A DNA stretch of 64,000 bases, taken from Candidatus Omnitrophota bacterium (GTDB lineage: Bacteria > Omnitrophota > Gorgyraeia > 2-01-FULL-45-10). The stretch covers positions 11,711 to 75,710 of the forward strand of contig JAQVUX010000002.1 of the NCBI GenBank assembly GCA_028699255.1. Direction: 5' to 3'. Under the pieces are notes generated by a model. The model was given only the letters and a program-made list of their open reading frames with translations, was not told where the DNA came from and did not search any database. This document shows positions 2,220-58,711 of this stretch, in pieces. The translations under genes and the position numbers were made by a program. The first letter of the stretch is position 1; every line of letters begins with the position of its first letter.

Positions 2220-3441
2220 GAAACAGGTTAATATCCTTGTGCTTAATTGCGGGAGCTCGTCCCTGAAGTATAAAATAATAAGAATGCCGGATGGGGCCGA
2301 GATCGTACGCGGGGAAGCCGAAAGAGTAGGCGCTAAAACTCGAGAGTCTTCTATTATTACGCATTTTGTTTTTGGTAAAAAAACAGTGATTGAAACGCCG
2401 CTTGCGGATCATTCCGCGGCTCTTAAAAAAGTGCTTGAGTTGATAGCCGATAACGAAAAAAAGAACAAAGATATAAGGTTTGATATTTTTGCGCACAGGT
2501 ATGTTCACCCGGGTATGTCATTTAGTAAGACCGCGAAGGTTAACAAGGTTGTTTTGAGAAAATTGAAAGAGACATTGCCGCTTGCGGCTATCCATAATCC
2601 GATAATCTACAAATTAATAGAATTTTGTCACCGTTCATACGTCGGTATAGACCAGTTTGTAGTATTCGATACCGTTTTTCATAAGACGATCCCGCCGGAA
2701 TTTTCTACCTACGCGCTTCCTTTAAAAGTTATGAAGAAATATCATATAAAAAAAATAGGTTTTCATGGCATATCCCACAAATACGTTATGGAGGAAGCGT
2801 GTAAATTTTTAGGTAAAGATAAATCTTTTCAGAAAATAATAAGCTGTCATTTAGGCTCGGGCGGCTCGAGTATTTGCGCGATTAGCAATGGAAAATCTGT
2901 TAATAATTCCATGGGATTTACTCCGCTCGAAGGCTTGATGATGAATACCCGTTGCGGGGATATCGATCCCGGGGCGGTTTTTTACATAATGTTCAAAGAA
3001 CGTTTTTCTTCGGAAGAAACCGAAAATATCCTTAATAATAAAAGCGGCATCTTGGGTGTATTCAATAGCTCATCCGATCTTAGGGATGCTATTAAGGATA
3101 TCGACAAAAGTAAACAGGCCAAAATGGCATTCAATATGTATGTACGCCGGGTAAGGACGTATGTGGCATTTTACGCCATGATCCTGAAGAAAGCGGATAT
3201 TTTGATATTCACAGATTCGCTTGGCATAGGATCTCCGGTATTGCGTAAAAGTATTTGTAAGGATATGGGGTTTTTAGGGATTAACCTTGACGAAGAAAAG
3301 AACAAAGAATACGATAAAGGCATAAGTGTTATTTCGCCTGCCGATTCCGGCACAAAAGTTCTTATAATTCCCACAGACGAAGAAAATATGATCGCAAAAG
3401 AAGCATACAAGGAGCTGATAAAAAATGATTCCGGTTATTGA
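2209..3441 (+). CDS. ackA: Acetate/propionate (acyl) kinase family protein
   Basis: ILVLNCGSSSLKYKI phosphate-1 motif, GFHGISHKY, TRCGDIDPGAV and IPTDEENMIA motifs match the ASKHA acetate-kinase catalytic signature. Confidence 0.8.
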   Translation: MKSKKQVNILVLNCGSSSLKYKIIRMPDGAEIVRGEAERVGAKTRESSIITHFVFGKKTVIETPLADHSAALKKVLELIADNEKKNKDIRFDIFAHRYVHPGMSFSKTAKVNKVVLRKLKETLPLAAIHNPIIYKLIEFCHRSYVGIDQFVVFDTVFHKTIPPEFSTYALPLKVMKKYHIKKIGFHGISHKYVMEEACKFLGKDKSFQKIISCHLGSGGSSICAISNGKSVNNSMGFTPLEGLMMNTRCGDIDPGAVFYIMFKERFSSEETENILNNKSGILGVFNSSSDLRDAIKDIDKSKQAKMAFNMYVRRVRTYVAFYAMILKKADILIFTDSLGIGSPVLRKSICKDMGFLGINLDEEKNKEYDKGISVISPADSGTKVLIIPTDEENMIAKEAYKELIKNDSGY

Positions 3442-4632: not shown

Positions 4633-5862
4633 ATGGCAAATATAAAAGATAAAAGATCTAATATTACTCTTTCTCAGGAAATTAAGATCCTGAGAAGAAT
4701 CGTTGAGATCACGAATTCCGAGCTTGACCTAAAATTAATTCTTGGAGAGATCGTTAATGTTGTTAACGATATAACCAAAGCGGATTCTGTTTTTATCTAT
4801 CTATTTGATGAGAAAAAGCGGCATCTGGTTCTTATCGCTTCAAAAACTCCGCATAAAAAAGAGATAGGTAGCGTGAATCTTAAAATAGGAGAAGGCATTG
4901 CGGGCTGGGTCGCTCGCGAGAATAAGCCTGTCGCCATACAAAAAAATGCTTATCAGGATTCACGGTTTAAAAATTTTGACGCACTGCCGGAGGATAAATA
5001 TGAGGCGCTTCTTTCTGTTCCTATCATTTATAAAGGAAGGCCTACGGGAGTTATTAATGTCCAACATAAAAAGCCGCACGAATATGCCGTAAATACTGTT
5101 AGCTTAATCTCGATCATAGCTAAACAGGTAGGCGGTGTTATTGAAAATGCCAGATTACATGAAGAGGATAAGAGAAAGGCCCTGCAATTCGACAGCTTAA
5201 CCAAGGTAAGCAGGTCTATTACTTCACAAGGGTATTTAGGCGAGATCTTGAACCTTATCGTTGTTGTTACGGCTAAAATGCTTAATTCTAAAATCTGTTC
5301 TATCATGCTTCTTGATCAAAAAGGTGATGAGCTGGCTATTAAAGCTACCCAGAGCTTGAGCGAAGAGTATAAAAAGAAGCCAAATATAAAAGTGAATACC
5401 AGTATAAGTGGAGAGACTATAACAACCAAAAAACCCATTGTAATCTATGATGTCCGGAGTGAGAAAAAATACCATTTTAGGGATTTAGCGGTTAAAGAAA
5501 ATCTTACATCGATGCTGTCGGTACCTATGGTCGTAAGAGATAAAGCGATAGGCATTATTAATGTTTATACAATAGAGCGACACTTATTCACGCAAGAGGA
5601 AATCGATATATTGCAAATGGTGGCGAATCAGGCGGCTGTGGCGGTTGAAAATACAAAACTGATGGAAGATGCGTTAAAAGCCAAAGAAGCGTTGGAAGTG
5701 CGAAAGATGGTGGAGCGGGCAAAAGGTATACTGATGAGACAGTCGAAGATAAGCGAAGATGAGGCATACAGGATAATCCATCGTAAGAGTATGGATACAT
5801 GCAAGCCGATGCGTGAGATTGCCGAGGCGATTATTTTGGCTTGGGATATGAAAAAGCAGTAG
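4633..5862 (+). CDS. GAF-GAF-ANTAR RNA-binding antitermination-type regulator
   Basis: Two GAF-like segments (IGEGIAGWVAREN..., VPMVVRDKAIGIINVY). C-terminal ANTAR signature: EVRKMVERAKGILMRQSKISEDEAYRIIHRKSMDTCKPMREIAEAII. Confidence 0.8.
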   Translation: MANIKDKRSNITLSQEIKILRRIVEITNSELDLKLILGEIVNVVNDITKADSVFIYLFDEKKRHLVLIASKTPHKKEIGSVNLKIGEGIAGWVARENKPVAIQKNAYQDSRFKNFDALPEDKYEALLSVPIIYKGRPTGVINVQHKKPHEYAVNTVSLISIIAKQVGGVIENARLHEEDKRKALQFDSLTKVSRSITSQGYLGEILNLIVVVTAKMLNSKICSIMLLDQKGDELAIKATQSLSEEYKKKPNIKVNTSISGETITTKKPIVIYDVRSEKKYHFRDLAVKENLTSMLSVPMVVRDKAIGIINVYTIERHLFTQEEIDILQMVANQAAVAVENTKLMEDALKAKEALEVRKMVERAKGILMRQSKISEDEAYRIIHRKSMDTCKPMREIAEAIILAWDMKKQ

Positions 5863-6125: not shown

Positions 6126-7439
6126 ATGAATAGATTAAAAAGTTTTGCAATTATCAGCTTGTTGATGGCCGGTATGATTGCCGGCTCTGTCTGTGTGTAT
6201 GCCGACGAGACGGGCAGTATAAAGGAAATAGTATCAGCAGAATCGTCCTCATCTGTGTCTACGCCGGAGGTCGTGTCTGCGCCGGACCAGGGACTCCTGA
6301 TGACTATCCTGGATAAGGTAGGGTTAGGGAAGTACTTAAATCAGACGGGCATTAAAATCTATGGTTACGCCGAAGCCGGATATATGTACGATACGACGGC
6401 TCCGCAACCTTACGCCGGGCCGACATATTTGGCTTTTGACAGTTTAAGAAATACGCCGGTTGTAAATAAGATATCATTAAAAGCGGAAAGAACAGTTGAC
6501 GCCGCTAAAAAACAATTTGACATAGGGTTTTGTTTGCAAGGTATATGGGGCTATGATGCGAAATTTATTCATTCGGCAGGTCTTGGCGATACCCAGACAG
6601 GCCGGTATCAGCTTGACCCGCTTCAGGCTTATGTGGATGTAGCGCTTCCTTATATTCCCGTGAAAATTCGCGTAGGAAAATGGTTAGAGCTCGGAGGATT
6701 TGAACAGTTTGATGCTAATCTCTATGGGGCGTTTGGCGATCCGATGCGGGCCTTCTACTCTTATAGTTATCAGTGTTTTTACGCGGAGCCTGGCACTCAA
6801 ACAGGCCTTCTCGGCACATATGTAGTAAACCCTCATCTGACCTTAGATTTAGGATTTTCAGAAGGCTGGAACCACTCTTCGCGTAATCCTAACGGTTATC
6901 TGGATATAATAGGAAGAATTACCTACGCGCCAACGGATAAGACGACAATAATATTTGCGATGACAGAAGGCCCGGAATATCCTGTCGCAGTAGGGCGAGG
7001 ATTGCCTGATGCGGATACTAAGGACTGGTGGACCTCCATGGATCTCGTGATAACTCACAAGCTTACCGATAAGATTAGCTTAGGTACAGGCGTGGATTTT
7101 GTAAACGCTCCGCGTATACCGGGATTAGAAAACGGTTCCAAGCAATGGGGGGGTATAACCGGATATTTGAGTTATGCAATCAATCAATATGCAACAGCGA
7201 ATGGGCGTTTAGAATGGTTTAATGACTCGTCATACGGATTTGCCACCGGCGCCGGAATAGGCGCAAATTATTATGAGACTACCTTGGGAGCCGCTATAAA
7301 ACCGTTCCCTAAAGATAAGATTCTGTCGAATATGTTATTCAGGCCGGAAGTAAGAATAGACTGGGCCGATGAGGCGGTTTTCGCCAAAGGCGATAGAAGC
7401 CAGGTAACATTAGCAGGAGACGTTCTATTCACTTTCTAG
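6126..7439 (+). CDS. Putative outer-membrane beta-barrel/porin, first gene of the amt-glnK-glnA operon
   Basis: Signal peptide (MNRLKSFAIISLLMAGMIAGSVCVYA). Abundant alternating aromatic/Gly beta-strand pattern. C-terminal ...LFTF aromatic terminus typical of OMPs. Confidence 0.6.
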   Translation: MNRLKSFAIISLLMAGMIAGSVCVYADETGSIKEIVSAESSSSVSTPEVVSAPDQGLLMTILDKVGLGKYLNQTGIKIYGYAEAGYMYDTTAPQPYAGPTYLAFDSLRNTPVVNKISLKAERTVDAAKKQFDIGFCLQGIWGYDAKFIHSAGLGDTQTGRYQLDPLQAYVDVALPYIPVKIRVGKWLELGGFEQFDANLYGAFGDPMRAFYSYSYQCFYAEPGTQTGLLGTYVVNPHLTLDLGFSEGWNHSSRNPNGYLDIIGRITYAPTDKTTIIFAMTEGPEYPVAVGRGLPDADTKDWWTSMDLVITHKLTDKISLGTGVDFVNAPRIPGLENGSKQWGGITGYLSYAINQYATANGRLEWFNDSSYGFATGAGIGANYYETTLGAAIKPFPKDKILSNMLFRPEVRIDWADEAVFAKGDRSQVTLAGDVLFTF

Positions 7440-7475: not shown

Positions 7476-8807
7476 ATGGATACAAAAGTTGTTCTTGATA
7501 CGCTGTGGGTTTTAGTTACGGGAATGCTCGTGTTTTTTATGAATCTTGGATTTGCGATGGTGGAGGCGGGTTTTGCCAGGGTGAAGAATTGCGTGAATAT
7601 CTTATCAAAGAACTTTATAGTCTTCGCCATAGCCTCGATCGGATTCCTTGCCGTAGGGTATGGGCTTATGTTTGGCGATGGTAACCCGTTTATAGGTCTG
7701 AAGGGACTGTTTTTCTTAGGAGGATTGGACAATTCGCCAGCAACAGGCGAGGCTTATAAAGGAGTATATACCGCGTTAGCTTGGACAGGGGTTCCGTTAT
7801 TGGCAAAATTCTTTTTCCAACTTGTTTTTGCCGGAACGGCCGCTACGATAGTATCCGGCGCCGTAGCTGAAAGAATAAAGTACATTTCCTTTATAGTGTT
7901 TTCGTTTATTCTGGTTATGCTTATATACCCGATAGTAGGACATTGGATATGGGGCGGCGGATTTTTGGCAACAATGGGAATGTTCGATTTTGCCGGTTCT
8001 ACAGTAGTTCACTCAGTTGGCGGATGGGCCGCTTTAGCAGGAGTCCTGGTCTTAGGCCCCAGATTTGGAAAATATACGGATAGTGGCAAGATAAATCCGA
8101 TACCAGGGCACAATATACCTATAGCAACTATCGGAACGTTTGTGTTGTGGCTTGGCTGGTTCGGCTTTAATCCCGGCTCCACTATGGCCGCCGACCCTGT
8201 TGCAATAGCCCACATATGCATTACTACTAATACGGCGGCCGCGGCGGCAATATTGAGCGCGACGCTCTTGTCGTGGATATTATCAGGTAAACCGGATCTT
8301 GGTATGACACTTAATGGTTGCCTGGCAGGACTTGTGGCGATAACAGCCTCATGCGCTTTTGTAAGTATCGGAAGTTCCGTGATAATAGGCCTGATAGCCG
8401 GTGTTTTAGTAGTCCTTGCGGTTATGGGTTTTGACAGAATTAAATTAGACGATCCCGTGGGCGCTTTATCGGTCCACCTGGTAAACGGTGTTTTCGGTAC
8501 CATATGCGTAGGATTGTTCGCGCAGGATAAGCTTACAGGTACGGCCACAGGGAACGGGTTGTTCTTTGGCGGCGGAACCAAACTGCTTATGGCGCAATTG
8601 GCAGGCGTCCTGGCATGCGGAGCGTTTGTTTTCATAGCGTCTTTTATCACTTGGAAGCTTATAAAAGTTACGATCGGCCTTAGGGTGAGTTTGCAAGAAG
8701 AGATAGATGGGCTGGATATAGGTGAACATGGTAATTCCGCTTATCCGGAATTTTTGACCCGAAAACCGGCATATTCATTTTCGGGCTTGAATGAAGATAA
8801 GTCCTAA
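7476..8807 (+). CDS. amt: Ammonium transporter (Amt/MEP family)
   Basis: Multi-TM protein with Amt blocks (FFQLVFAGTAATIVSGAVAERIKY, HSVGGWAALAGVLVLGPR, HLVNGVFGT). Start set to ATG 7476, which lies 7 nt after an AAAGGAG RBS. The annotated 7470 is TTG. Confidence 0.9.
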   Translation: MDTKVVLDTLWVLVTGMLVFFMNLGFAMVEAGFARVKNCVNILSKNFIVFAIASIGFLAVGYGLMFGDGNPFIGLKGLFFLGGLDNSPATGEAYKGVYTALAWTGVPLLAKFFFQLVFAGTAATIVSGAVAERIKYISFIVFSFILVMLIYPIVGHWIWGGGFLATMGMFDFAGSTVVHSVGGWAALAGVLVLGPRFGKYTDSGKINPIPGHNIPIATIGTFVLWLGWFGFNPGSTMAADPVAIAHICITTNTAAAAAILSATLLSWILSGKPDLGMTLNGCLAGLVAITASCAFVSIGSSVIIGLIAGVLVVLAVMGFDRIKLDDPVGALSVHLVNGVFGTICVGLFAQDKLTGTATGNGLFFGGGTKLLMAQLAGVLACGAFVFIASFITWKLIKVTIGLRVSLQEEIDGLDIGEHGNSAYPEFLTRKPAYSFSGLNEDKS

Positions 8808-9226: not shown

Positions 9227-10621
9227 ATGGTCAATGCAATATTATATTACGTAATCGGCATTATCGCGACTGTGTGGGCATCGTCTTTTTTGGGGCTTAC
9301 CGCAAAGCAGTTGATGGCAATAGGCGGGTTCTCTTCTATATTTTTCGGAGCTATTTTTTTCTGGCGCCATCGTCTTGTGTTCGCATTCTTCGGAGTGGGC
9401 ATGCTTTTAACATTGGGCCTACTGGACGTACCACACGTGATCGAATTTGCCGGCATCGACATTGTCCTGTTCCTGATATCAATGATGATAATCATAGGAT
9501 TTCTCGAAGAGAAGCAATTTTTTGAACACCTTGTTAATAAATTGATAGCGCTTGTAGGGACTAATGGCCATCTCCTTTTTATCCTTTTGATGGTAGCATC
9601 CTTCGCTTCAGCCGCTCTTGTAGATGAGATAACCTCTATATTATTTATGAGTGCCGCAATGCTCAATCTTACTTCGCGGTTTAAACTAAACCCTATTCCA
9701 TTCATCATTATGATAGTTTTCGCGACAAATGTTGGTTCGAGCGCGACCGTAATAGGCAATCCCGTAGGGGTAATAATCGCACTAAGGAGCGGACTCGGTT
9801 TTATGGAATTCCTGCGGTGGGCGGCGCCTATATCACTCGTGGTTCTGGTTGTTACCATCGGGCTTTTCTATATATATTATGCCAGACCCATTCGACAGTT
9901 CAATGAAGCTTTTAAAGCTCACAAGAAAGAAATGGCAGGCAAGGCCGTACTTCTGGAAGGCGCTCATCTTTATAAGAAAGCCTTTATCCCGGGCATCCTT
10001 TTTGCGTGCGTGATACTTGGGCTTGTCTTTCATGCCGGGATAGAGCATTTTTTTGCTCTGGAAAAGAATACGATGCTTCTCGGAAGCGCGATACTGGGCG
10101 CATGCGCCGCACTCGCACTTCATAAAAACGAGGCGCGGGGCCTGGTAGAAAAACGCATCGACTGGTGGACGCTCGCCTTCTTTTTATTTCTGTTCGCATC
10201 TGTAGGTACATTAAAATATCAGGGCATAACCGGTGTATTGGCCCATAGAATAATGGAAGTTGCAGGAAATAATGTCCCCGCTTTGGTAAGTATATTTATA
10301 TGGGCATCGGGTGCGCTTACTTCCGTTATAGATAATGTGCTGGCCGTGTCGACCTTCGTTCCTATAGTTAAGGATATAGGGACTGCCGGAGTGCATTCGC
10401 CTTCGCTGTGGTGGGCGATACTGTTTGGCTCTACAATACTCGGTAATTTAACCATAATAGGCAGTACCGCCAATATGGTGGCTGTAGGCGTTATGGAACG
10501 GCGTAAGCTTGGCCAGATAAGTTTTTTAGAATGGTTAAAGGCGGGGGTCGTTGTGGCGATCCCATCTCTTATCGTTGCGCACCTACTGATCCTTGCGCAA
10601 TTGAAGTGGATGGTTAAATAA
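9227..10621 (+). CDS. ArsB/NhaD (CitMHS) superfamily anion permease
   Basis: About 12 TM segments with an internal repeat. Central soluble loop. Blocks such as NVGSSATVIGNPVGVII and TIIGSTANMV. Start placed at ATG 9227 because 9182-9212 forms a 9-bp hairpin (TGTCCGCCG...CGGCGGACA). Confidence 0.6.
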   Translation: MVNAILYYVIGIIATVWASSFLGLTAKQLMAIGGFSSIFFGAIFFWRHRLVFAFFGVGMLLTLGLLDVPHVIEFAGIDIVLFLISMMIIIGFLEEKQFFEHLVNKLIALVGTNGHLLFILLMVASFASAALVDEITSILFMSAAMLNLTSRFKLNPIPFIIMIVFATNVGSSATVIGNPVGVIIALRSGLGFMEFLRWAAPISLVVLVVTIGLFYIYYARPIRQFNEAFKAHKKEMAGKAVLLEGAHLYKKAFIPGILFACVILGLVFHAGIEHFFALEKNTMLLGSAILGACAALALHKNEARGLVEKRIDWWTLAFFLFLFASVGTLKYQGITGVLAHRIMEVAGNNVPALVSIFIWASGALTSVIDNVLAVSTFVPIVKDIGTAGVHSPSLWWAILFGSTILGNLTIIGSTANMVAVGVMERRKLGQISFLEWLKAGVVVAIPSLIVAHLLILAQLKWMVK

Positions 10622-12897: not shown

Positions 12898-12932
12898 GAA
12901 ATGTCCGCCCTCCCCTACGAGGCGGACATTTC
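12898..12932 (+). terminator. 12-bp perfect stem-loop after the GATase gene (no U-tract)
   Basis: GAAATGTCCGCC-tcccctacga-GGCGGACATTTC. Confidence 0.35.
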
Positions 12933-15403: not shown

Positions 15404-18182
<2,779 letters not shown>

Positions 18183-18210
18183 AACATAAGCCTCTTTTGC
18201 CGGTAGTAAA

Positions 18211-18252
18211 CAAAAATCCTATGACTTCGTTCATTAAGCCATAGGATTTTTG
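18211..18252 (+). terminator. Long stem-loop (13 bp) after gdhA
   Basis: CAAAAATCCTATG...CATAGGATTTTTG followed by TTTCTAAT. The U-tract is weak. Confidence 0.5.
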
Positions 18253-18386
18253 TTTCTAATGCGCAGGCGTGTTTCTTTCCAATAAAGCCGCCCGTTAATA
18301 TATTTGCAAAATTCAATAATGAATGGTATATTTATAATATGAATAAATGTTCAATTATTGAAAAATACAACCGGAAGGATACGGCA

Positions 18387-19095: not shown

Positions 19096-20445
19096 ATGAT
19101 TTCCAGGAAAATGATCCTATCGGTTCTGATTGTGCTGATTAGCTACTCTCCGTTTTGCGCTTACGGCGCGGAATCTTTTGGAAGTCTCAAAGAAAAGAGC
19201 GATAGGCTACTTACGATACCGGAGGGCATCTCCATAGTACTTAAAGACAGCCGGCTCGTAAAGATCGAAATAGCCGGCAAAGATATGTCTTTTGATGATA
19301 CTCTTATAGCGCTATCTCCGCTACTACCCCATTTGAGCGCCAGTATTTCCAAGACGTATAATAAGTATACACCGGAAATGATGTTCGGAGCGGTAGCGGT
19401 GCCTATGGGCGATCGGAATCCGTTCTCCGGCGGCATCGATGTATATCAGACTCTATTCGATTTCGGCAAAAGCATTTCGAACTATAAAGCATCTACGGAA
19501 ATGCTAAACGCTCGCAAGGCGAGCGTGGAAAGCGTGAAGAGGACAATAACGCTCGAGTTCATAGTTTCTTACTTCGATTTATTAGAGACGGAAAAAATGA
19601 TCGCGGTGGCCGGCAAAGAAGTCGATAGCCTTACCTCTTACCTTAATGATATGGAGCACCTCTACACGCAGGGCGTTATTGTAGAGAATGACCTTTTGCC
19701 GGCGAAGGTGAAGCTTGCCGATGCCAAACAAAAACTCATAGCTTCCGGCAACAGGCGGGAGGTGGTCGCCTCCGCTATCAATACGATGCTCACCATGCCG
19801 CTTACAGAAGGCATAATCACTCAGGATGTTACGGGGGAGGTGCCGGCACTTCCCGAATTAAGTGATGCCTGGGTCTGCGCGGAAGCTAAAAGGCCGGAGA
19901 TATTATTCTTTAATAAACAGATCAAGTCTTCCGCTTTAAGGGAACAGGCCAAGACGGTTCAGAACCTTCCTACCGTTTTTGTCGACGGCGGTTACGCTTA
20001 TACGCAGAATCAATACATGGTTCACGAAGATAACGCGTACGTCAAGTTAGGCGCGAAGATGGATCTGTATGATGGCGGCCTGACCGGCGCGGAGATCATG
20101 AAAGAGCGCAACATGAACAAGCAACTTCACGAGCAGAAGAGTAAAATAGTCGAAGATATTCGATATGAGGTCAAACGTAGTTTTCTCGGATTAAAAGATG
20201 CTATTGAGAAAATGGAGGTTGCCAAGGGCGCTTTACAGCAGGCCGAAGAGAACCTGCGTTTTTACCGTGTCAAATACAATAACGGCGCCGCGACTTCGAC
20301 GGATGTTCTCGAGGCTATCAATCTTCAGACCAAAGCCGAGACCAACTATTACAGCGCGGATTATGAGTTAAAACGCTGTTACGCGAAACTGGTATATTCT
20401 ACAGGGAACGATTTGATGTCGATTTACAATAAAACGGAGAAATAG
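19096..20445 (+). CDS. TolC-family outer-membrane efflux protein
   Basis: Signal peptide. Two OEP repeats with a coiled-coil-rich alpha/beta pattern. Positioned first in the efflux operon. Confidence 0.75.
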   Translation: MISRKMILSVLIVLISYSPFCAYGAESFGSLKEKSDRLLTIPEGISIVLKDSRLVKIEIAGKDMSFDDTLIALSPLLPHLSASISKTYNKYTPEMMFGAVAVPMGDRNPFSGGIDVYQTLFDFGKSISNYKASTEMLNARKASVESVKRTITLEFIVSYFDLLETEKMIAVAGKEVDSLTSYLNDMEHLYTQGVIVENDLLPAKVKLADAKQKLIASGNRREVVASAINTMLTMPLTEGIITQDVTGEVPALPELSDAWVCAEAKRPEILFFNKQIKSSALREQAKTVQNLPTVFVDGGYAYTQNQYMVHEDNAYVKLGAKMDLYDGGLTGAEIMKERNMNKQLHEQKSKIVEDIRYEVKRSFLGLKDAIEKMEVAKGALQQAEENLRFYRVKYNNGAATSTDVLEAINLQTKAETNYYSADYELKRCYAKLVYSTGNDLMSIYNKTEK

Positions 20446-31335: not shown

Positions 31336-32724
31336 ATGAAACCAACCCCGCAGGAACGCCTTATACTTTCGTTTGCGGCCGTTTCAAATTTGTCGGCCAT
31401 CCTGACTTTTATAGCGGGATGCATCGGCATATTTATAAATACTCCCGTCGTAAGGAACGCGATCCCGGGACTCGTTACGATGAAGGTCAATACCGCATTA
31501 TGCTTTATACTCGCCGGTCTTTCATTATGGCTGATTCAGATAAGCCGCAATACCAGGACGAACAGACTGATAGCGCTATGTTGTATTTCGTTGATTGCCG
31601 TGATAGCCGGCCTTACGTTTTTTGAATATATCTCCGGTATAGATATAGGCATTGATCAATTACTGATCCATGTAAATATCCCCTCGGATTTCACCGTCAA
31701 CCCCGTTCGTATGGCATTGAGTACGGTGATAACTTTTTTTCTCGTATGTTATGCCATGTTTTTAATAATATCAAAAGAGGGCCGCGGTCATTATCTGTAC
31801 CAGGTTCCGGCAATTTTTGGTATGTTGATTGCCTCGGCCGTGTTATTGGGGTACCTTTATAACGTGCCGCTTCTTTATCATTTCCCGCGCGGGAATCCGG
31901 TGATGGCATTCCATACTTCCATAGCATTTTTTATAATGTTTCCCGGAGTTATTTTTGCCCGGCCGGATACGGGGCTGATTAGTATAGTTACACGGTATAG
32001 CGCAGGAGGTCTTGTGGCCCGGAGCCTGACGCCTATCGCTATTATCGTGCCGCCGATTTTCGGTATGGCTAAGCTATTGGCCGAAAAAAGAGGTGTCATA
32101 AACAACGAGATCGGCATATCGCTGGTGGCTACAGCCAATGCGGCAGTAATAAGCGCATTTATAATATGGTTTGCGGCTTTTATAGATAAGACGGAATTAA
32201 AGCACAAAATTTTAAGAGATAAGCAAGAGAGAGAGTCGCTTTTTTTTACGACTATATTTGATAATACGCCCAATGCCGTATATATTTACGACATGACCGG
32301 AAAATTTATCGAGGCCAATCCCGCCGCCTGCAATTTATTGGGATATGAGCACGAAGTATTGCTCAAAATGTCGGCATCGAACGTAGAATCCTCCATAAAC
32401 ACTGCCCTGATATCCGATCGAATCGCGCAAGTAAAAAAGGATGGACGCATCACTTCGGATGTTATTTATAACAAAGGCGACGGGACGATTGTCAGTCTGG
32501 AAGTGAACAGTCAAATGGTGGATTTGCGCGGTGAGCAGGTTATCATGAATATAGTGCACGATATTACGCTACGCCGGCGCATTGAAGAGGCGCTAAAAAT
32601 TAAGATCAGGGAGATGGAAATAATTAATAAGACTACCGTGGATCGTGAATTGAAGATGGTTGAATTAAAGAAAAAGATAAAAGATCTCGAAGGAGAACTA
32701 GAAAAGGAGCGGCGTCATGAATAA
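31336..32724 (+). CDS. Integral-membrane sensor with C-terminal PAS domain and coiled-coil tail (no output domain)
   Basis: About 8 TM helices. PAS block (TIFDNTPNAVYIYDMTGKFIEANPAACNLLGYEHEV...SLEVNSQMVDLRGEQV). Ends in a charged coiled coil. Starts 23 nt after the NuoB-like gene. Confidence 0.65.
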   Translation: MKPTPQERLILSFAAVSNLSAILTFIAGCIGIFINTPVVRNAIPGLVTMKVNTALCFILAGLSLWLIQISRNTRTNRLIALCCISLIAVIAGLTFFEYISGIDIGIDQLLIHVNIPSDFTVNPVRMALSTVITFFLVCYAMFLIISKEGRGHYLYQVPAIFGMLIASAVLLGYLYNVPLLYHFPRGNPVMAFHTSIAFFIMFPGVIFARPDTGLISIVTRYSAGGLVARSLTPIAIIVPPIFGMAKLLAEKRGVINNEIGISLVATANAAVISAFIIWFAAFIDKTELKHKILRDKQERESLFFTTIFDNTPNAVYIYDMTGKFIEANPAACNLLGYEHEVLLKMSASNVESSINTALISDRIAQVKKDGRITSDVIYNKGDGTIVSLEVNSQMVDLRGEQVIMNIVHDITLRRRIEEALKIKIREMEIINKTTVDRELKMVELKKKIKDLEGELEKERRHE

Positions 32725-33925
32725 GAAACCTTTAGTGGTGGTTTTAATCCTGCTTTTTGTAGTTCTTGCCGGCGTTGCTGTATTCCTATTTGCGGGAAAA
32801 TTATTCGCGCCCAGGGAAGAGGTTATATTAGATCAGACCAGTAATACATTTCTCGTAAAAGGCGATGTAAAGATAAATAAGATAAGCGCGGGAGGCGGTT
32901 GGCATAAACTTGAAGCCTCTACGGTTATCGAAAAAGGAGACGTAATAGAGACCGCCGGCGAATCGACGGCCGATATAGTTATAGGCGCCAATACAGATAA
33001 GGCGATCAAGATAGGCGAGAAGAGTATCGTGGAATTCGAAGGGATCAACCCGACGTCGCTCAATTTTTCTAAAGGCAAATTACTGGTAAACGTGAAGAGG
33101 CTGGAGCCGAAGTCCTCCTTTGTGGTGAAGACACCCACCGCTATATGCGGCGCCAGAGGCACCGGATGGATGGAGGAAGCGTCTCCGGGGATGACGAAAG
33201 TATGTGTATTCGACAACTCCGTATTCGTTCGAGAACTTAATGACGCAGGGAAACCGAAGATGGGTAAACGCATTGCCAACCAGGGCACAGAGTTGATCAT
33301 ACAAAAGGGCGTTATCATAAAAGAGGTACCGCTGGGCGAACTCGACGCGCAGGTATGGCAATCCTGGGCGAAGAATGTGGAATACTTAAGAGAAGGCAAA
33401 GTCCTGGTGAACGATTTTGACAGGAAAGAAAATTTCAACAACTTAAGCGGGCCGTTCGGATCGTGGAATGTGTTCTTCTCCGACCCCAGTCAGTATTGCA
33501 GGGATGAGTTTACGGTATTGGAGAGGGTGGGCGAAAAAGGCTACGCTTTAAAACTTACTTATGATGTCGAGACATCATTCTCAGCCTATAACGGTTTCTT
33601 TACAAACCTGATGGGCATAGACATCTCCGGCTACAAGTATCTTGTATTCTCTATAAAAGGGGATAAGATAGCCGGATTTACGACCAGCGTGAATGTTGAG
33701 CTTAAGAATATGCGCCAGACGGGCCGCGCGAAGGTTGATGGTATAACGTCGGAATGGAAACGCATAGTGTTGCCGCTAAAGGATTTTGTCGGCATAAATA
33801 CGTTTAAGGATATGAAGGAAATAGTTGTTGTATTCAGCGATATAGCCGTTACCAAAAAGGTTGGAGTTGTTTATATAGACGACATCTATTTCGCAAAATA
33901 CGATCCTGACGTTAAAGGTGAGTAA
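32717..33925 (+). CDS. Single-pass membrane protein with FecR-like domain and C-terminal beta-sandwich domain
   Basis: N-terminal TM helix. FecR-family block (KGKLLVNVKRLEPKSSFVVKTPTAICGARGTGW). ATGA overlap with the PAS gene. Confidence 0.6.
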   Translation: MNKKPLVVVLILLFVVLAGVAVFLFAGKLFAPREEVILDQTSNTFLVKGDVKINKISAGGGWHKLEASTVIEKGDVIETAGESTADIVIGANTDKAIKIGEKSIVEFEGINPTSLNFSKGKLLVNVKRLEPKSSFVVKTPTAICGARGTGWMEEASPGMTKVCVFDNSVFVRELNDAGKPKMGKRIANQGTELIIQKGVIIKEVPLGELDAQVWQSWAKNVEYLREGKVLVNDFDRKENFNNLSGPFGSWNVFFSDPSQYCRDEFTVLERVGEKGYALKLTYDVETSFSAYNGFFTNLMGIDISGYKYLVFSIKGDKIAGFTTSVNVELKNMRQTGRAKVDGITSEWKRIVLPLKDFVGINTFKDMKEIVVVFSDIAVTKKVGVVYIDDIYFAKYDPDVKGE

Positions 33926-34332
33926 TGGATAGTTGCGCGGGAACCATAAAGGTTCCGAGCCGGACAAGTTCGATAAAGAAAGTTTCATCCGGGATACTTG
34001 AACAACTTTTGCCGTACAAAGTGAGCGAAGAGCGGCTCTTTGATATAACATTATGTATCGAGGAGGCGGTCAGAAACGCCATTATTCACGGCAATCGTTC
34101 CGACCTAAAATTGCAAGTGAAGGTTGATTACAGCATAGACGGTGATAATATCGCTGTGGAAGTAGAGGACGAGGGCGCCGGTTTTCAGCCGGCACGCGTT
34201 CCGGATCCTACCGAAGAATGCAATATAACTAAAGAGTCCGGCCGTGGACTGCATCTCATCGTGCGGCTTATGGACCGGGTGGAGTTTAATAAAAGAGGTA
34301 ACAGGATCAGGATGGAAAAGTCGTTGAGGTAA
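33925..34332 (+). CDS. RsbW/SpoIIAB-type anti-sigma-factor serine kinase (GHKL ATPase)
   Basis: N-box EEAVRNAIIHGN, G1 box VEDEGAGF, G2 box SGRGLHLI. 135 aa. Start overlaps the FecR-like gene stop. Confidence 0.75.
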   Translation: MDSCAGTIKVPSRTSSIKKVSSGILEQLLPYKVSEERLFDITLCIEEAVRNAIIHGNRSDLKLQVKVDYSIDGDNIAVEVEDEGAGFQPARVPDPTEECNITKESGRGLHLIVRLMDRVEFNKRGNRIRMEKSLR

Positions 34333-34342
34333 TCGCGTAGTG

Positions 34343-34505
34343 TAGGAGATAACCGTAGGAGATAACCGCGTAGGTTATTTGAGTTAAATGACTGGCCAAC
34401 CTACGCGGTTGGCGTGTAGCAGATAACCGCGTAGGTTATCTGAGTTAAATGACTGGCCAACCTACGCGGTTGACAGAGTAATTGGCCAACCTGTGCGGTT
34501 GGCGG
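34343..34505 (+). repeat. Tandem 60-nt repeat (about 2.5 copies) carrying a 13-bp inverted repeat AACCGCGTAGGTT...AACCTACGCGGTT around a TGGCCA core
   Basis: Units are 34362-34411 and 34422-34472, with a partial third unit to ~34505. A single copy recurs at 58634-58692. Confidence 0.8.
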
Positions 34506-34517
34506 AGGAGAGGTAAG

Positions 34518-34850
34518 ATGGCGGTAAAAACGGAGACAAGAGGCGAGTTGACGATCTGTTACATAGACGGCGAGATAGATATAGTGCGCAGTCCGGAGAT
34601 GAAGAAGATTTTTGATAAACTCACCGGGAAGAAGACGCCGAAGATAGTGATAGAGTTGTCGAAGGTTACGTATGTCGATTCATCGGGGCTTGCTACGCTC
34701 GTCGGTATATTGAAGAATATGCGTTCTTACGGCGGGAAGATGCGGCTTGCCGCGATGTCGCCGAAAATAAAGAGCCTCTTCGAGATAACTAAATTGGATA
34801 AGCTATTCGAGATAATGGCCAGCGAAGAAGAAGCCGTTGCGGGGTTATAG
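34518..34850 (+). CDS. STAS-domain protein (anti-sigma-factor antagonist / MlaB-like) with conserved phosphorylatable Ser motif
   Basis: SpoIIAA-like fold with the motif VTYVDSSGLATLVGIL. GGAGGAGAGG RBS. Stop overlaps the mlaE start. Confidence 0.8.
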   Translation: MAVKTETRGELTICYIDGEIDIVRSPEMKKIFDKLTGKKTPKIVIELSKVTYVDSSGLATLVGILKNMRSYGGKMRLAAMSPKIKSLFEITKLDKLFEIMASEEEAVAGL

Positions 34851-34851
34851 G

Positions 34852-35598
34852 ATGGGTTATAATACTCTGGCGCTTTTTTTCGACACCATATACTGGCTGA
34901 TCGTCGGTCCGCTGAAGAATAAATTTGTAAAAGCGGACAGTATCTTCAGCCAGATGGTATTCGCCGGTGTCGGCTCGCTTATGATAACGTCTTTCGTCGC
35001 ATTCTTCACAGGCATAGTCATAGCGATGCAGTCGGCTTATCAGCTCGCGAGGTTTGGCGCTAATATCTATGTCGCTCCGATGGTCGCGGTGGCTCTGGCA
35101 AGGGAACTTGCGCCGGTACTGACGGCACTTGTGGTTACAGGGCGCGTTGGCGCGGCAATAGCGGCGGAACTCGGCACGATGAAGGTTACCGAGCAGATAG
35201 AGGCGCTCGAGACGATGGCCTTGAATCCTGTCCGGTTTCTCGTCGTTCCGCGGTTTCTTGCGCTTCTGATTATGCTCCCATGCCTTACCGTTCTGGCGGA
35301 TATCATCGGCATATTCGGCGGCTTTCTGGTGGGTGTATTTAATCTTCATCTCGATCCTTACAGGTACATAACATTCTCATTCAAATATATGCAATGGAAA
35401 GACGTTTGGACAGGGCTTGTCAAAAGCGTTGTATTTGCGATAACGATAGCGATGGTTGGATGTCATACGGGATTAAAAACTAAGGGCGGCGCCGAAGGTG
35501 TCGGCAAAGCGACGACCATGAGCGTAGTGACAAGTTTTATACTTATAATACTTTTTGACTGCATATTGACAGGGCTATTCTATTTTACGCAAAAATAA
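34852..35598 (+). CDS. mlaE: MlaE-family ABC transporter permease
   Basis: Five TM segments. MlaE/YrbE conserved block (ELGTMKVTEQIEALETMALNPVRFLVVPRFLA). Confidence 0.8.
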   Translation: MGYNTLALFFDTIYWLIVGPLKNKFVKADSIFSQMVFAGVGSLMITSFVAFFTGIVIAMQSAYQLARFGANIYVAPMVAVALARELAPVLTALVVTGRVGAAIAAELGTMKVTEQIEALETMALNPVRFLVVPRFLALLIMLPCLTVLADIIGIFGGFLVGVFNLHLDPYRYITFSFKYMQWKDVWTGLVKSVVFAITIAMVGCHTGLKTKGGAEGVGKATTMSVVTSFILIILFDCILTGLFYFTQK

Positions 35599-35601
35599 TA
35601 T

Positions 35602-36399
35602 ATGGAAAAAGAGATAGTAATAAAAGCAGAAAATGTGGTAAAGAAATTCGGCGACAGAACCGTTCTAAGCGGCGTAAGTCTCGAAGTATATAAAGGCGAG
35701 ACCTTTGTTATAATGGGCGGCTCCGGTTGCGGCAAGAGCACGTTCCTGCGCCACCTGATAGGAGCGCTAAAACCCGATTCCGGCAAGGTCTATCTCTTGG
35801 GTAAAGATTTGAGTATTTTAAAAGAAGACGATCTGGACGGCGTAAAGAAGAAGATAGGGATGTCGTTCCAGTCATCGGCCCTTTTCGATTCGATGACGGT
35901 TGGAGAAAATGTCGCGTTGCCGCTTAAAGAACACGCGAAGATAGAGCAGAGCGTTATAGATATAGTGGTAAAGATGAAACTCGAGCTTGTCGGGCTCAGA
36001 GGCTTCGAAGATCTTATGCCGAGCCAGATATCAGGCGGCATGCGAAAACGGGTGGGCCTTGCCCGGGCGATAGTGATGGATCCGGAGATAGTATTTTACG
36101 ACGAGCCGACGGCGGGACTGGATCCGATAGTGGCAGGCGTGATAGATAAGCTTATACTGGATCTATCGCAGAAGCTTTCCATTACGAGCGTTGTCGTTAC
36201 CCATGACATGAAGAGCGTATTTTCCATAGCGAGCAGAGTTGCCATGTTGTACGAAGGTAGGGTTCTCGAAGTGGGTACGCCGGATGAGATACGCGGGAGT
36301 AAAAATCAGATGGTCCAACAGTTCGTCGCGGGCAGTCCGGACGGCCCGATAAAATTTTTCCAGCAGAAAGACGATTATTTAGAGCAGTTGATGAAATAA
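35602..36399 (+). CDS. mlaF: MlaF-family ABC transporter ATP-binding protein
   Basis: Walker A GGSGCGKST, signature LSGGMRKRV, Walker B IVFYDEP. Confidence 0.85.
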   Translation: MEKEIVIKAENVVKKFGDRTVLSGVSLEVYKGETFVIMGGSGCGKSTFLRHLIGALKPDSGKVYLLGKDLSILKEDDLDGVKKKIGMSFQSSALFDSMTVGENVALPLKEHAKIEQSVIDIVVKMKLELVGLRGFEDLMPSQISGGMRKRVGLARAIVMDPEIVFYDEPTAGLDPIVAGVIDKLILDLSQKLSITSVVVTHDMKSVFSIASRVAMLYEGRVLEVGTPDEIRGSKNQMVQQFVAGSPDGPIKFFQQKDDYLEQLMK

Positions 36400-36417
36400 G
36401 GCCAAAGGAGATGAAAC

Positions 36418-37035
36418 GTGAAGATAACCAATGAGATAAAAACAGCCGTTGTTGTGATATCCGCGATAGCTGTAGGTGTGATATTTTGGGCCAAGACGAC
36501 GGATTTTAAAACCAAACCGTATCGCATCAAAACATATTTTAACTATGCCGAGGGAGTTAAGTCCGATTCGATAGTAAAACTCTCCGGTATAGATGTGGGC
36601 AGGGTGGAGAAGATAACTTTTCAGTATCTGCCTGAGACCAAGATAGAGCTGGTGCTCACAATAAACGATATCGCTAAATTCCATGAGGACTCGGTTGCCT
36701 TCATATCGACGTCCGGCATGATAGGCGACGCCTATGTAGGCATAACGCCGGGCTCGCCCGACAAGCCTTTCGCAAAAGACGGTTCTACGCTCGCGAGCGA
36801 AGACCCTGTCGAGATGAGAAAACTGATGAAGAAGGCGGATGCGATATCCGAGAACCTCGACAAGACGCTCGCGGAAGTGAAGACGCTTGCCTCAAACGTC
36901 AATAACGTTGTTTCCGATAATAAAGCCAGGATTGATGGCATAGCGTCAAACCTGGAGGCGACGAGTGTCAATTTTAAGGAATTCAGCGAGGATATTAAGC
37001 ATCATCCATGGAAACTGCTGATGAAGGGAAAATGA
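36418..37035 (+). CDS. mlaD: MlaD-family MCE-domain protein
   Basis: N-terminal TM helix plus MCE domain (KLSGIDVGRVEKITF). Probable GTG start after an AAGGAGATG RBS. Confidence 0.8.
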   Translation: MKITNEIKTAVVVISAIAVGVIFWAKTTDFKTKPYRIKTYFNYAEGVKSDSIVKLSGIDVGRVEKITFQYLPETKIELVLTINDIAKFHEDSVAFISTSGMIGDAYVGITPGSPDKPFAKDGSTLASEDPVEMRKLMKKADAISENLDKTLAEVKTLASNVNNVVSDNKARIDGIASNLEATSVNFKEFSEDIKHHPWKLLMKGK

Positions 37036-43889: not shown

Positions 43890-43964
43890 GCGGCGGTAAT
43901 TCAGTGGTAGAATGCGACCTTGCCAAGGTCGATGTCGTGGGTTCGAACCCCATCCGCCGCTCCA
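43890..43964 (+). tRNA. tRNA-Gly (anticodon GCC), CCA encoded
   Basis: Acceptor GCGGCGG/CCGCCGC, D-arm ATTC-AGTGGTA-GAAT, anticodon stem CGACC/GGTCG with loop TTGCCAA, T-arm GTGGG-TTCGAAC-CCCAT. Confidence 0.85.
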
Positions 43965-43970
43965 TATTCT

Positions 43971-44106
43971 GAAAACTTTTCGAAGAAAGTTTTCAGGTCC
44001 TGGAGTTTCAGATACTTCGATTTTGCTCCGCAAAATCGAAGGAGTGAGCAAAACTTTTCGAAGAAAGTTTTCAGGTCCTGGAGTTTCAGATACTTCGATT
44101 TTGCTC
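43971..44106 (+). repeat. Two tandem copies of a 78-nt structured repeat, upstream of tRNA-Lys
   Basis: Unit: GAAAACTTTTCGAAGAAAGTTTTCAGGTCCTGGAGTTTCAGATACTTCGATTTTGCTCCGCAAAATCGAAGGAGTGAGC. It contains hairpin A (GAAAACTTT/AAAGTTTTC) and hairpin B (CGATTTTG/CAAAATCG). Confidence 0.8.
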
Positions 44107-44211
44107 TGAAAAATCCTGGCCCGCATAGCTCATCCTCCTGCGCTACGACAGTAAGATTGGATGAAGCTTCGGCGAGATTTCGCCGACAGGGCTAAAGAGT
44201 AAGATTATAGC

Positions 44212-44287: not shown

Positions 44288-44381
44288 CGCTCCTAAAATT
44301 TCCAATAGGAAATTTTAGGGTCCTGGGGTTTGACAAGTCCAGATTTTGTTTGGAAATTTCCGAACAAAATCTGGGTACTCC

Positions 44382-44517
44382 GAAAACTTTTCGAAGAAAG
44401 TTTTCGGGTCCTGGAGTTTCAGATACTTCGATTTTCCTCCGGAAAATCGAAGGAGTGAGCAAAACTTTTCGAAGAAAGTTTTCGGGTCCTGGAGTTTCAG
44501 ATACTTCGATTTTCCCT
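44382..44517 (+). repeat. Two further tandem copies of the same 78-nt repeat, downstream of tRNA-Lys
   Basis: Same unit as 43971-44106. Hairpin B changes from GC...GC to CC...GG, a compensatory double change, and AGGTCC changes to GGGTCC. Confidence 0.8.
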
Positions 44518-44627
44518 GAAATTTTCAGAGAAAAATTTTAAGGAGATGAGGGAATAAGCAGGGTTTTGATTTTGGAATTTTCAAGAGGAAATTTCTAAGA
44601 CGCTAGTACTAAAAGGAGACGTGCTTT

Positions 44628-54130: not shown

Positions 54131-54162
54131 AAACTCTTAAGAAGCAAAAATAAACGTAAAAA

Positions 54163-54206
54163 CAAAGCCTAAAATTCGCAATTTGGATTTTAGGCTTTGT
54201 TTTTTA
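54163..54206. terminator. Bidirectional Rho-independent terminator between convergent fba and lptF/G
   Basis: CAAAGCCTAAAAT-tcgcaatttgg-ATTTTAGGCTTTG with flanking T and A tracts. Confidence 0.6.
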
Positions 54207-57981: not shown

Positions 57982-58647
57982 ATGAAAAAGGATGCGGTAG
58001 ATAATTTTATTGTCTTCTTCGACTTCGATAATACTATCACTACCATCGACGTTATAGATGACATACTCGAGCGGTTTTCAGATAACGACGGCTGGAAGGC
58101 CCTCGAACGGAAATGGCAGAACGAAGAGATAGGCTCCCGTGAATGCCTTAAGGGGCAGATCGAAGGCGTGAGGGTATCCAGGGATAAGCTGGATGATTAT
58201 TTGTCCACCGTAAAGATAGACCCGTATTTTAAAAAACTGCTTAATCTACTCGAATCCCGCAAGATACCGTTCCTGATAGTGAGTGATAATTTCGATTATA
58301 TGCTTAACGGTATACTTAAGAAGAACGGTATATCCGGAGTGGAGACTTATTGTAATAAAGTCGATTTTCGGGACGAGTGGTTTGTGCCGAGTTTCCCGCA
58401 TTCGAACGCGAAGTGCGGCGATTGCGCCAATTGCAAAAAGACGCACATATTAGCGAAGAGACGCCAGGGCACAAAAGCCATCTATGTAGGTGATGGGCGA
58501 TCCGATGTATGCGCGTCAAAGATTTCCGATGTGGTGTTCGCAAAGGGTTATCTGAGGAAGCTTTTTAAGGAAGAAGGGTTGCCTCACGTAGCGATCGATA
58601 GTTTGAAAGATGTCTATGAATATTTTGCAGGAGAAATAACCGCGTAG
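57982..58647 (+). CDS. HAD-IB family phosphatase (MtnX-like 2-hydroxy-3-keto-5-methylthiopentenyl-1-phosphate phosphatase fold)
   Basis: FFDFDNTIT (motif I), VSDNF (motif II), VGDGRSD (motif IV). Its stop codon lies inside the 58634-58692 palindromic repeat. Confidence 0.65.
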   Translation: MKKDAVDNFIVFFDFDNTITTIDVIDDILERFSDNDGWKALERKWQNEEIGSRECLKGQIEGVRVSRDKLDDYLSTVKIDPYFKKLLNLLESRKIPFLIVSDNFDYMLNGILKKNGISGVETYCNKVDFRDEWFVPSFPHSNAKCGDCANCKKTHILAKRRQGTKAIYVGDGRSDVCASKISDVVFAKGYLRKLFKEEGLPHVAIDSLKDVYEYFAGEITA

Positions 58648-58692
58648 GTTATTTGGGTAAAATAATTGGCCAGCCCACGCGGTTGGTATAGG
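58634..58692 (+). repeat. Single copy of the AACCGCGTAGGTT-palindrome repeat unit (same family as 34343-34505)
   Basis: AAATAACCGCGTAGGTTATTTGGGTAAAATAATTGGCCAGCCCACGCGGTTGG. The arm has one G-U wobble and one mismatch. Sits between the HAD gene stop and the RBS of the aminotransferase gene. Confidence 0.7.
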
Positions 58693-58711
58693 ATTATACG
58701 AGGAGAAAGGC

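Follow-up and report, generated by a model that had tools for sequence, protein, structure and literature searches.

Among the repetitive extragenic palindromic (REP) elements of bacteria, 24 families carrying a GTAG motif have been described, and the TAG of this motif frequently doubles as the stop codon for an adjacent open reading frame (ORF; Di Nocera et al. 2013, PMC3733652). The same paper also ascribes to REPs the stabilization of upstream mRNA. Here we report on a 61-nt palindromic repeat in a 64,000-nt stretch of Candidatus Omnitrophota DNA, referred to as the window, where it forms an array between an rsbW-like gene and a STAS gene (locus A, 34342-34503) and occurs once more between a HAD phosphatase gene and an aminotransferase gene (copy B, 58634-58686). 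Our data indicate that the repeat belongs to a new family in Omnitrophota, similar to REPs and to MITEs (miniature inverted-repeat transposable elements), and is not a dedicated switch for its stress-signaling neighbors. We put at roughly 0.6 the probability that it forms part of a REP-like palindromic repeat family dispersed in Candidatus Omnitrophota and that it spreads and acts as proposed below. A literature search found no description of such repeats in Omnitrophota.

The likeness to GTAG REPs (PMC3733652) extends over size, organization, and location. Each consists of short palindromes outside genes, in which stems of 6-9 bp close a small loop; the local palindromes of the Omnitrophota repeat measure 17-23 nt (up to 45 nt in L028; loci compared with the window are given L numbers) and have a 5-nt loop. 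Both, like the bacterial interspersed mosaic elements (BIMEs) of E. coli, are organized as singles, as inverted heterodimers (with REPs about 20 nt apart), and as tandem groups that include flanking DNA. We found heterodimers of a GATAACC-type and a GGCCAACC-type palindrome in the window and in L003, and tandem groups of 2.5 units in the window, 4+1 copies in L021, and 2+2 copies in L028. Furthermore, all copies lie between genes, downstream of co-directional ORFs as REPs do, and GTAG is present with its TAG serving as a stop codon in four cases. An earlier model-generated reading of the same DNA, referred to here as the original prediction, had called the element REP/BIME-like and not a simple terminator, and this is supported by its being a dispersed extragenic palindromic repeat that occurs in inverted pairs and tandem groups with no T-tract. 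Differences from GTAG REPs include that Omnitrophota was not among the phyla surveyed in PMC3733652 and that the 6-7-nt direct repeats flanking the Omnitrophota element are foreign to REPs.

The REPIN-RAYT system (Bertels and Rainey 2011, PMC3116915) offers a second comparison. Here too a short spacer separates two inverted modules that are able to pair into a single long hairpin, related lineages share a conserved core, and Y1 transposases, annotated as RayT, are common in Omnitrophota. The Omnitrophota element differs in its length of about 50-60 nt and in being patchy among close relatives rather than vertically stable, and no RAYT gene flanked by the motif was found among the Omnitrophota Y1 genes read. 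MITEs (the Correia/NEMIS elements of Neisseria, RUP, ERIC, and the enterobacterial RU) are likewise short, non-coding, and hairpin-forming, and lie at gene junctions; they share with the element terminal inverted repeats, a possible target-site duplication, and the ability to overlap or extend ORF ends. The element departs from MITEs in that its right end is not conserved past GGTTGG and in that it also occurs as a single 20-45-nt palindrome and in 15-nt tandem arrays, both of which are atypical for MITEs; a parent insertion sequence with the same ends was not seen in 1.4 Mb of Omnitrophota loci.

Anatomy and folding of the repeat

All copies in the window are built on the 13-mer AACCGCGTAGGTT and its complement. 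This 13-mer occurs five times exactly in the 64-kb window, and nine times when up to two mismatches are allowed. Seven of the nine matches lie within the two loci and the other two (2529 and 2706) are unrelated; shuffled sequence gave 1.22 +/- 1.04 such matches, with none of 100 shuffles reaching nine, and no further copies were found elsewhere in the window. Each 13-mer is itself an interrupted palindrome, AACC-GCGTA-GGTT, whose complementarity extends outward. The basic module consists of a conserved tip (stem AACC/GGTT with, in the window, the 5-nt loop GCGTA) on a lower stem that varies and stays complementary. The second arm forms a local palindrome of its own, TGGCCAACC-TACGC-GGTTGGC(CA), and a unit is an inverted pair of two unlike palindromes, one of the GATAACC type and one of the TGGCCAACC type, about 15-17 nt apart. 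The TGGCCA that the original prediction had taken for an independent palindrome within the hairpin loop is in fact the lower stem of this second palindrome, and we rejected it as a separate component. The loop GCGTA (TCGTA in other lineages) places GTAG at the loop/stem junction, where it is invariant among the copies (AACC-KC-GTAG-GTT).

Between rsbW (33925-34332) and the STAS start codon (ATG, 34518) lies a 185-nt spacer that holds two full 61-nt units and a half unit, which together span 34342-34503. The 2.5 tandem units and single distant copy noted earlier are thus present, with the unit refined to 61 nt: for 34355-34472, Tandem Repeats Finder reports 1.9 copies of a 61-nt period with 96% matches. 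The same program identifies, where the array begins on the left, a 13-nt direct duplication of GTAGGAGATAACC (34342-34367; + strand, as for all features given at both loci), which includes two of the three AGGAGA copies (34344-34349 and 34357-34362) and two GTAG motifs. Unit A1 (61 nt, 34355-34415) is composed of GTAG-GA, palindrome 1 (ATAACC-GCGTA-GGTTAT, 34362-34378), a spacer, and palindrome 2 (GCCAACC-TACGC-GGTTGGC, 34395-34413). Unit A2 (61 nt, 34416-34476), which is 96% identical to A1, starts with GTAG-CA and contains a palindrome 1 with a 9-bp stem (CAGATAACC-GCGTA-GGTTATCTG, 34420-34442) and palindrome 2 (CCAACC-TACGC-GGTTG, 34457-34472). The half unit A3 (34480-34503) has palindrome 2 only (TGGCCAACC-TGTGC-GGTTGGC), and both of its differences from the consensus fall within the central pentamer. 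The third AGGAGA is the Shine-Dalgarno sequence of the STAS gene (AGGAGAGG, followed by the ATG at 34518; 34506-34520) and may represent the right-hand member of a duplicated target.

Copy B, the fourth copy (58634-58686), lies at the junction of genes for a HAD-IB phosphatase and a class-III aminotransferase. Its palindrome 1 is AAATAACC-GCGTA-GGTTATTT (58634-58654) and its palindrome 2 is CCAGCC-CACGC-GGTTGG (58670-58686). As had been predicted, this distant copy overlaps the HAD stop codon, a TAG (58645-58647) that falls within the 5' arm, and its stem has one G-U pair and one mismatch, the 3' arm CCAGCCCACGCGGTTGG placing an A-C mismatch against the 5' arm. A left AGGAGAA direct repeat (58629-58635) lies within the last HAD codons. 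To the right, a small extra hairpin, TATAGGATTATA, is followed by AGGAGAA and the aminotransferase start (58687-58714), this right AGGAGAA (58701-58707) being the Shine-Dalgarno sequence ahead of the ATG (58712). A strain from another metagenome (L096), 99.4% identical overall, carries copy B unchanged, and copy B appears to be fixed in the population.

The arms of the long hairpin are separated by 21 nt. The original prediction of a 13-bp hairpin with a loop of about 21 nt holds as regards the arms and their spacing, but this hairpin is only one of two folds that are predicted to be nearly isoenergetic, the alternative being two small hairpins. For A1, the single 13-bp hairpin has a calculated energy of -24.7 kcal/mol versus -21.5 kcal/mol for two local hairpins. 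For L003, the long hairpin is not the minimum; the minimum-energy fold consists of the two local hairpins and two extra outer pairs (-29.2 kcal/mol, or -27.1 kcal/mol for the local hairpins with pairs limited to 25 nt). RNA folding, which had been proposed as a check, yielded a stable fold for the whole locus A spacer (-72.2 kcal/mol for 186 nt, z = -5.0). The central pentamer, which forms the local hairpin's loop, takes up the A3 changes as well as one of the two in copy B, and one lower-stem pair is G-C in A2 and L003, G-T in A1, and A-T in copy B. Since the differences among copies lie in the loop or in a compensated stem, they fit the local fold.

Covariation analysis, also proposed as a check, was carried out on 26 modules, some of whose flanks are neighboring copies. 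In these modules AACC/GGTT (inner stem) and KCGTA (loop) hardly vary, whereas the lower stem differs in sequence yet stays paired. We found that 79.9% of cells are paired, compared to 65.0% in shuffles, and that both sides have changed in 42 cells, compared to 16 +/- 3.4 in shuffles (0 of 500 reached 42). The covariation score is 0.347, and slid controls did not exceed 0.114. Overall, the lower stems of the local palindromes covary.

Insertion at gene junctions and dispersal among Omnitrophota

We examined the best 80 of 531 confirmed MlaE matches, nearly all of which are labeled Candidatus Omnitrophota metagenome-assembled genomes (MAGs), with a top identity of 88%. The order rsbW-STAS-mlaE is kept in 68 related loci, and the element is absent from the rsbW-STAS junction in all 68. 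There, the rsbW stop and the STAS start are separated by a median of 11 nt and by 78 nt at most, with frequent overlap of the two genes; in the window the separation is 185 nt. The junction in relatives consists of the stop codon, 10-20 nt with a Shine-Dalgarno sequence, and the ATG, and deleting the interval from the first to the last AGGAGA in the window would give TAA-tcgcgtagtgtAGGAGAggtaag-ATG, a 23-nt spacer as in L005 and L007. At the second junction, L084 has a 4-nt overlap (ATGA) of the HAD and aminotransferase genes and L085 one of 26 nt, compared to a gap of 64 nt in the window. The HAD protein of the window ends ...YFAGEITA, its homologues end ...YFERSLS, ...YFERILA, and similar, and the homology to L085 ends at ...gcagga. 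The divergent tail together with this stop in homology indicates that the last codons and the stop (ata acc gcg TAG) come from the element. Given that the junctions are tight or overlapping in relatives, both window copies are lineage-specific insertions, made recently at the two gene junctions of the window genome.

Both loci are flanked by + strand genes, as the original prediction described. It had further argued that the position between a partner-switching kinase and its STAS/Mla target pointed to a regulatory role, and here it lacks support, since the 68 relatives are without the element and unrelated junctions also carry it (HAD/aminotransferase in the window, valS in L003, and folC and a tRNA locus in L021/L028). 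This occurrence at unrelated junctions, together with the absence from relatives, indicates an insertion, with any effect on the operon being secondary; the insertion status and the other junctions rule out a conserved operon-specific regulator. For annotation, this means that the long spacer ahead of STAS-mlaEFD and the odd HAD C-terminus are insertion scars and not regulatory inventions.

The original prediction would have been undermined had the genome contained only these copies and had relatives shown no conservation of them. The sampled close relatives do lack them, but related copies are present in other Omnitrophota. A scan of metagenomes returned one true relative (L003) and two chance matches (L001, L002); a scan of viral contigs gave no match, and neither did a search for the arm plus TGGCCA in species-representative public genomes, among which the source genome is not included. 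L003, a metagenome contig, carries a near-identical pair directly after valS, whose product ends ...KGITA* with the motif TAG as the stop codon. The best homologues of this ValS are only 69% identical, and no empty site was obtained.

Dialects of the core with GCGTA or TCGTA are dispersed in L003, L021, L028, and L058, and the 13-mer is kept across lineages whose MlaE is only 67-70% identical. Overall, the arrangements found across Omnitrophota are single palindromes, 15-nt tandem arrays, and inverted pairs. The variant AACCTCGTAGGTT is present at three loci in 10 kb of L021, at least three loci in 20 kb of L028, and once in L058 (761-789). L021 has four 15-nt tandem copies and one inverted copy at 1661-1753, two pairs at 3094-3230, and a copy at 10041-10102 that adjoins the contig end. 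L028 has a 2+2 array at 2137-2211, a perfect 20-21-bp palindrome beside a tRNA-Ala gene at 17467-17511, a copy at 19173-19249, and degenerate copies at 5170-5700 and 6261-6460. L021 and L028 are mutual closest relatives (86% MlaE identity), and both have an array at the same site upstream of folC with differing copy numbers.

Four times the upstream gene terminates at the motif TAG, read in the same frame (ACC-KCG-TAG). These include the folC-like gene of L021 (1791-3107) and an ORF of L028 (18322-19191), both ending in the frame ACC-TCG-TAG. In the window, TAG is the stop codon of 9 of 51 genes.

Our data document palindromic repeats resembling REPs in Omnitrophota, an uncultured phylum whose genomes are very compact, and repeated colonization of gene junctions in this phylum by lineage-specific hairpin arrays. 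Such repeats plausibly cause assembly breaks in MAGs. As a separate observation, the 100-N runs seen in related loci are ordinary scaffold gaps, and deliberate masking was rejected as their cause.

Mode of spread and alternative explanations

Direct repeats of 6-7 nt flank four loci: AGGAGA, AGGAGAA, TAAAGGG, and GGAAGTT (shuffle P = 0.15, 0.06, 0.04, and 0.03, respectively). Fisher combination of the four values, by hand, gives approximately 0.004. The right-hand repeat coincides in every case with the Shine-Dalgarno sequence of the following gene. On the left, AGGRGATAACC is common to A1, copy B, and L003, and the left-hand repeat may belong to the element itself; in L003, simple excision does not give back the valS stop codon. 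The direct repeats are suggestive only of a target duplication, which, if real, would point away from a Y1/RAYT mechanism.

The element entered two junctions of the window genome, and at locus A it was then amplified in tandem. We hypothesized that, as a non-autonomous element, it would spread by means of a trans-acting enzyme that recognizes the conserved hairpin tip. Surviving insertions would be those that left a Shine-Dalgarno sequence before the downstream gene and an early stop codon upstream, often the TAG of the element. Once inserted, the element would be co-transcribed and form a strong mRNA hairpin, which would replace translational coupling of the neighboring genes with independent initiation and may, like the REPs of E. 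coli, shield the upstream message against degradation by 3' exonucleases. An effect on rsbW/STAS expression would then be a by-product of the insertion and not the reason for the element. An RNA-level role as a consequence of insertion (stabilization of the upstream message, or uncoupled translation of rsbW and STAS) is plausible and compatible with a dispersed REP-like repeat. Signs at the RNA level are sparse: a few G-U-compatible changes, a stabler sense fold of copy B, and the same orientation at three loci. If a mobilizing enzyme were found, the REP/RAYT or MITE picture would extend to a deep-branching phylum and provide a handle on how insertions between translationally coupled genes are tolerated.

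Several observations weigh against this interpretation. The GTAG of the Omnitrophota repeat lies at the junction of loop and 3' stem, whereas the classical GTAG forms a tail left unpaired below the stem; only A1 and A2 have a tail-type GTAG followed by a dinucleotide and the stem, copy B having a GCAG five nt away and L003 none. The window genome holds just two loci in approximately 74 kb, with no further copy in the 9.6 kb downstream of the window, and the closest relatives sampled (L004-L013, L084, L085) are without the element. Perfect palindromes could result from fold-back synthesis or gene conversion rather than selection, and the direct repeats may be coincidental Shine-Dalgarno-like sequence or part of the element. 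Furthermore, tblastn with E. coli RayT and IS200 queries found no Y1 transposase in the window. It found one Y1 gene, in L057, confirmed as Y1_Tnp by Pfam. Proteins of this family (approximately 163 aa, IS200-like, and often annotated as RayT) are widespread in Omnitrophota, with 120 hits at 57-78% identity. The Y1_Tnp genes of L057 (2101-2604) and L088-L094 (among them L088 9868-10359 and L091 1655-2146) are bracketed not by the motif but by the unrelated GGACCGTTTCC...GGAAACGGTCC. We considered a RAYT link to the element and did not establish one, the Y1 genes read carrying this other inverted repeat. The L091 gene is additionally bracketed by an 18-nt direct repeat, cggtatgaaacttgaatt.

A bolder version of the proposal is that the AACC-KCGTA-GGTT modules represent an undescribed kind of mobile palindrome that is recognized at its tip by an enzyme, favors Shine-Dalgarno sequences or stop codons of tightly packed junctions for its insertion with a 6-7-bp target duplication, and then forms lineage-specific tandem-plus-inverted arrays. 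We regard this as speculative and rather unlikely in its full form. If true, the window would hold one instance of a phylum-wide filling of 10-20-nt junctions with differing short-unit palindromic arrays, of which the region upstream of folC gives examples.

It is unlikely that the copies are ordinary factor-independent terminators or mRNA 3'-end stabilizers that only seem repeated. They are G+C-rich hairpins directly after stop codons of co-directional genes, and REPs are credited with stabilizing upstream mRNA (PMC3733652). However, no copy is followed by a T-tract, which bears out the earlier observation at both loci, and a scan listed no terminator-like site in 34333-34517. Terminator-like hairpins of the window carry A- and T-tracts. 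Two of these, at 18208-18255 and 54158-54204, look like bidirectional intrinsic terminators, and we infer from them that the window genome does use T-tract terminators. A canonical Rho-independent terminator is thus excluded. In addition, the position inside a conserved operon argues against full termination, and identical 13-17-mers at unrelated loci and in other genomes need copying, not convergence.

An operon-specific cis-regulatory RNA that determines the expression ratio of rsbW:STAS/Mla, be it an attenuator, a processing site, or a hairpin bound by protein, would account for the location between two genes of one probable operon and for the strong fold there (-72 kcal/mol, z = -5.0). It would also fit the changes in the 3' arms of A3 and copy B, which are mostly G-U-compatible on the sense strand, the sense fold of copy B (-21.2 kcal/mol, versus -18.3 kcal/mol antisense), and the shared orientation of all G-type copies relative to transcription. 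The G-U and orientation evidence comprises only three or four events, however, and the 68 related rsbW-STAS-mlaE loci, in which the genes abut or overlap, do without the element, which is found instead at unrelated junctions. In Rfam, no family matched the element at the gathering threshold (only four tRNAs pass in the window), and under permissive settings the best hits over the element reach at most 20 bits against gathering scores of 45-88. We consider this explanation distinctly unlikely.

Conservation of an interrupted-palindrome 13-mer across lineages of 67-70% MlaE identity, and its regular multimers (15-nt arrays in L021, 27-34 nt centre-to-centre in the window), would also be expected if a protein that binds DNA as a dimer, for example a global regulator or a nucleoid-associated protein, recognized AACC/GGTT half-sites 5 bp apart and its sites were selected at many loci. 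Such an origin is very improbable: the sites are found within operons and at the 3' ends of genes rather than at promoters, and are insertions relative to related genomes. Moreover, the copies of any one genome match at 100%, the asymmetric centre included, beyond what is usual for operators, and the covarying complementarity reaches far past the 13-mer, which duplex binding does not need. Least credible is a DNA uptake sequence (DUS) like that of Neisseria, or a Haemophilus-type uptake signal sequence (USS), lying by chance in inverted pairs after genes: the Neisseria DUS, often found as inverted pairs downstream of genes, is likewise a 12-13-nt conserved motif with lineage dialects (here GCGTA versus TCGTA), but the Omnitrophota repeat has no isolated copies inside coding sequence in approximately 74 kb, its flanks are palindromic and covary as stems, and its 15-nt tandem arrays and low density (two loci in 74 kb) are unlike uptake sequences.

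Neighboring genes and other repeats

The gene upstream of locus A encodes an RsbW-like anti-sigma serine kinase (HATPase_c_2; 33925-34332, stop TAA 34330-34332). Downstream lie the STAS gene (34518-34850), mlaE (34837-35598), a gene for an mlaF-like ABC ATPase (35602-36399), and mlaD (36418-37035), all on the + strand and assigned with Pfam. Genes for a PAS-domain membrane protein, a FecR-domain protein, the RsbW-like kinase, and the STAS protein stand directly before mlaE-mlaF-mlaD (31336-37035). The linkage of rsbW, STAS, and mlaE, conserved across Omnitrophota, suggests that a partner-switching module controls Mla lipid transport or is co-expressed with it.

Other repeats were noted in the window. 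A 78-nt unit (AAAACTTTTCGAAGAAAGTTTTCAGGTCCTGGAGTTTCAGATACTTCGATTTTGC...) with two small hairpins, GAAAACTTTTCGAAGAAAGTTTTC and CTTCGATTTTGC..GCAAAATCGAAG, occurs twice in tandem at each of two places between tRNA genes (43960-44120 and approximately 44380-44525). An intergenic hairpin at 12898-12932 has a stem of 12 perfectly matched bp, GAAATGTCCGCC/GGCGGACATTTC; read on the minus strand, the loop includes TCGTAGG, the core heptamer of other lineages, which may be coincidence.

In L028 compared to L058, the tRNA-Ala(GGC) gene is inverted relative to the tRNA-Leu(CAA) gene (L028 17372-17690; L058 16778-16960). The motif-bearing 20-21-bp palindrome of L028 (17467-17511) lies exactly between the two, and the inversion is possibly a palindrome-associated rearrangement. 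L028 (3592-3670) and L021 (4637-4747) contain further long perfect inverted repeats of unrelated sequence: TGTCATCCTCGCGAACGCGGGGATCTATAA, with 30-nt arms, overlaps the folC stop codon TAA, and TTTGCCTTTGCGGATTCGCAAAGGCAAA adjoins a 100-N scaffold gap. The L021/L028 genomes harbor several families of hairpin repeats side by side.

At the junction upstream of folC, read in L008, L011, L041, L058, L021, L028, L025, L026, and L055, most Omnitrophota have a spacer of 9-24 nt. Several lineages have arrays of their own there, in which a short unit is repeated in tandem and followed by inverted copies (units GGTTTCT in L011, GATTACAGTGAT in L041, and GGATACTCGA in L058). The sequences read suggest a phylum-wide tendency to fill junctions with palindromic arrays. 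In L011, a repeat of GAAACCAG/CTGGTTTC units is present both in the 78-nt rsbW-STAS spacer (approximately 8431-8510) and upstream of folC, an independent parallel to the window case with unrelated sequence.

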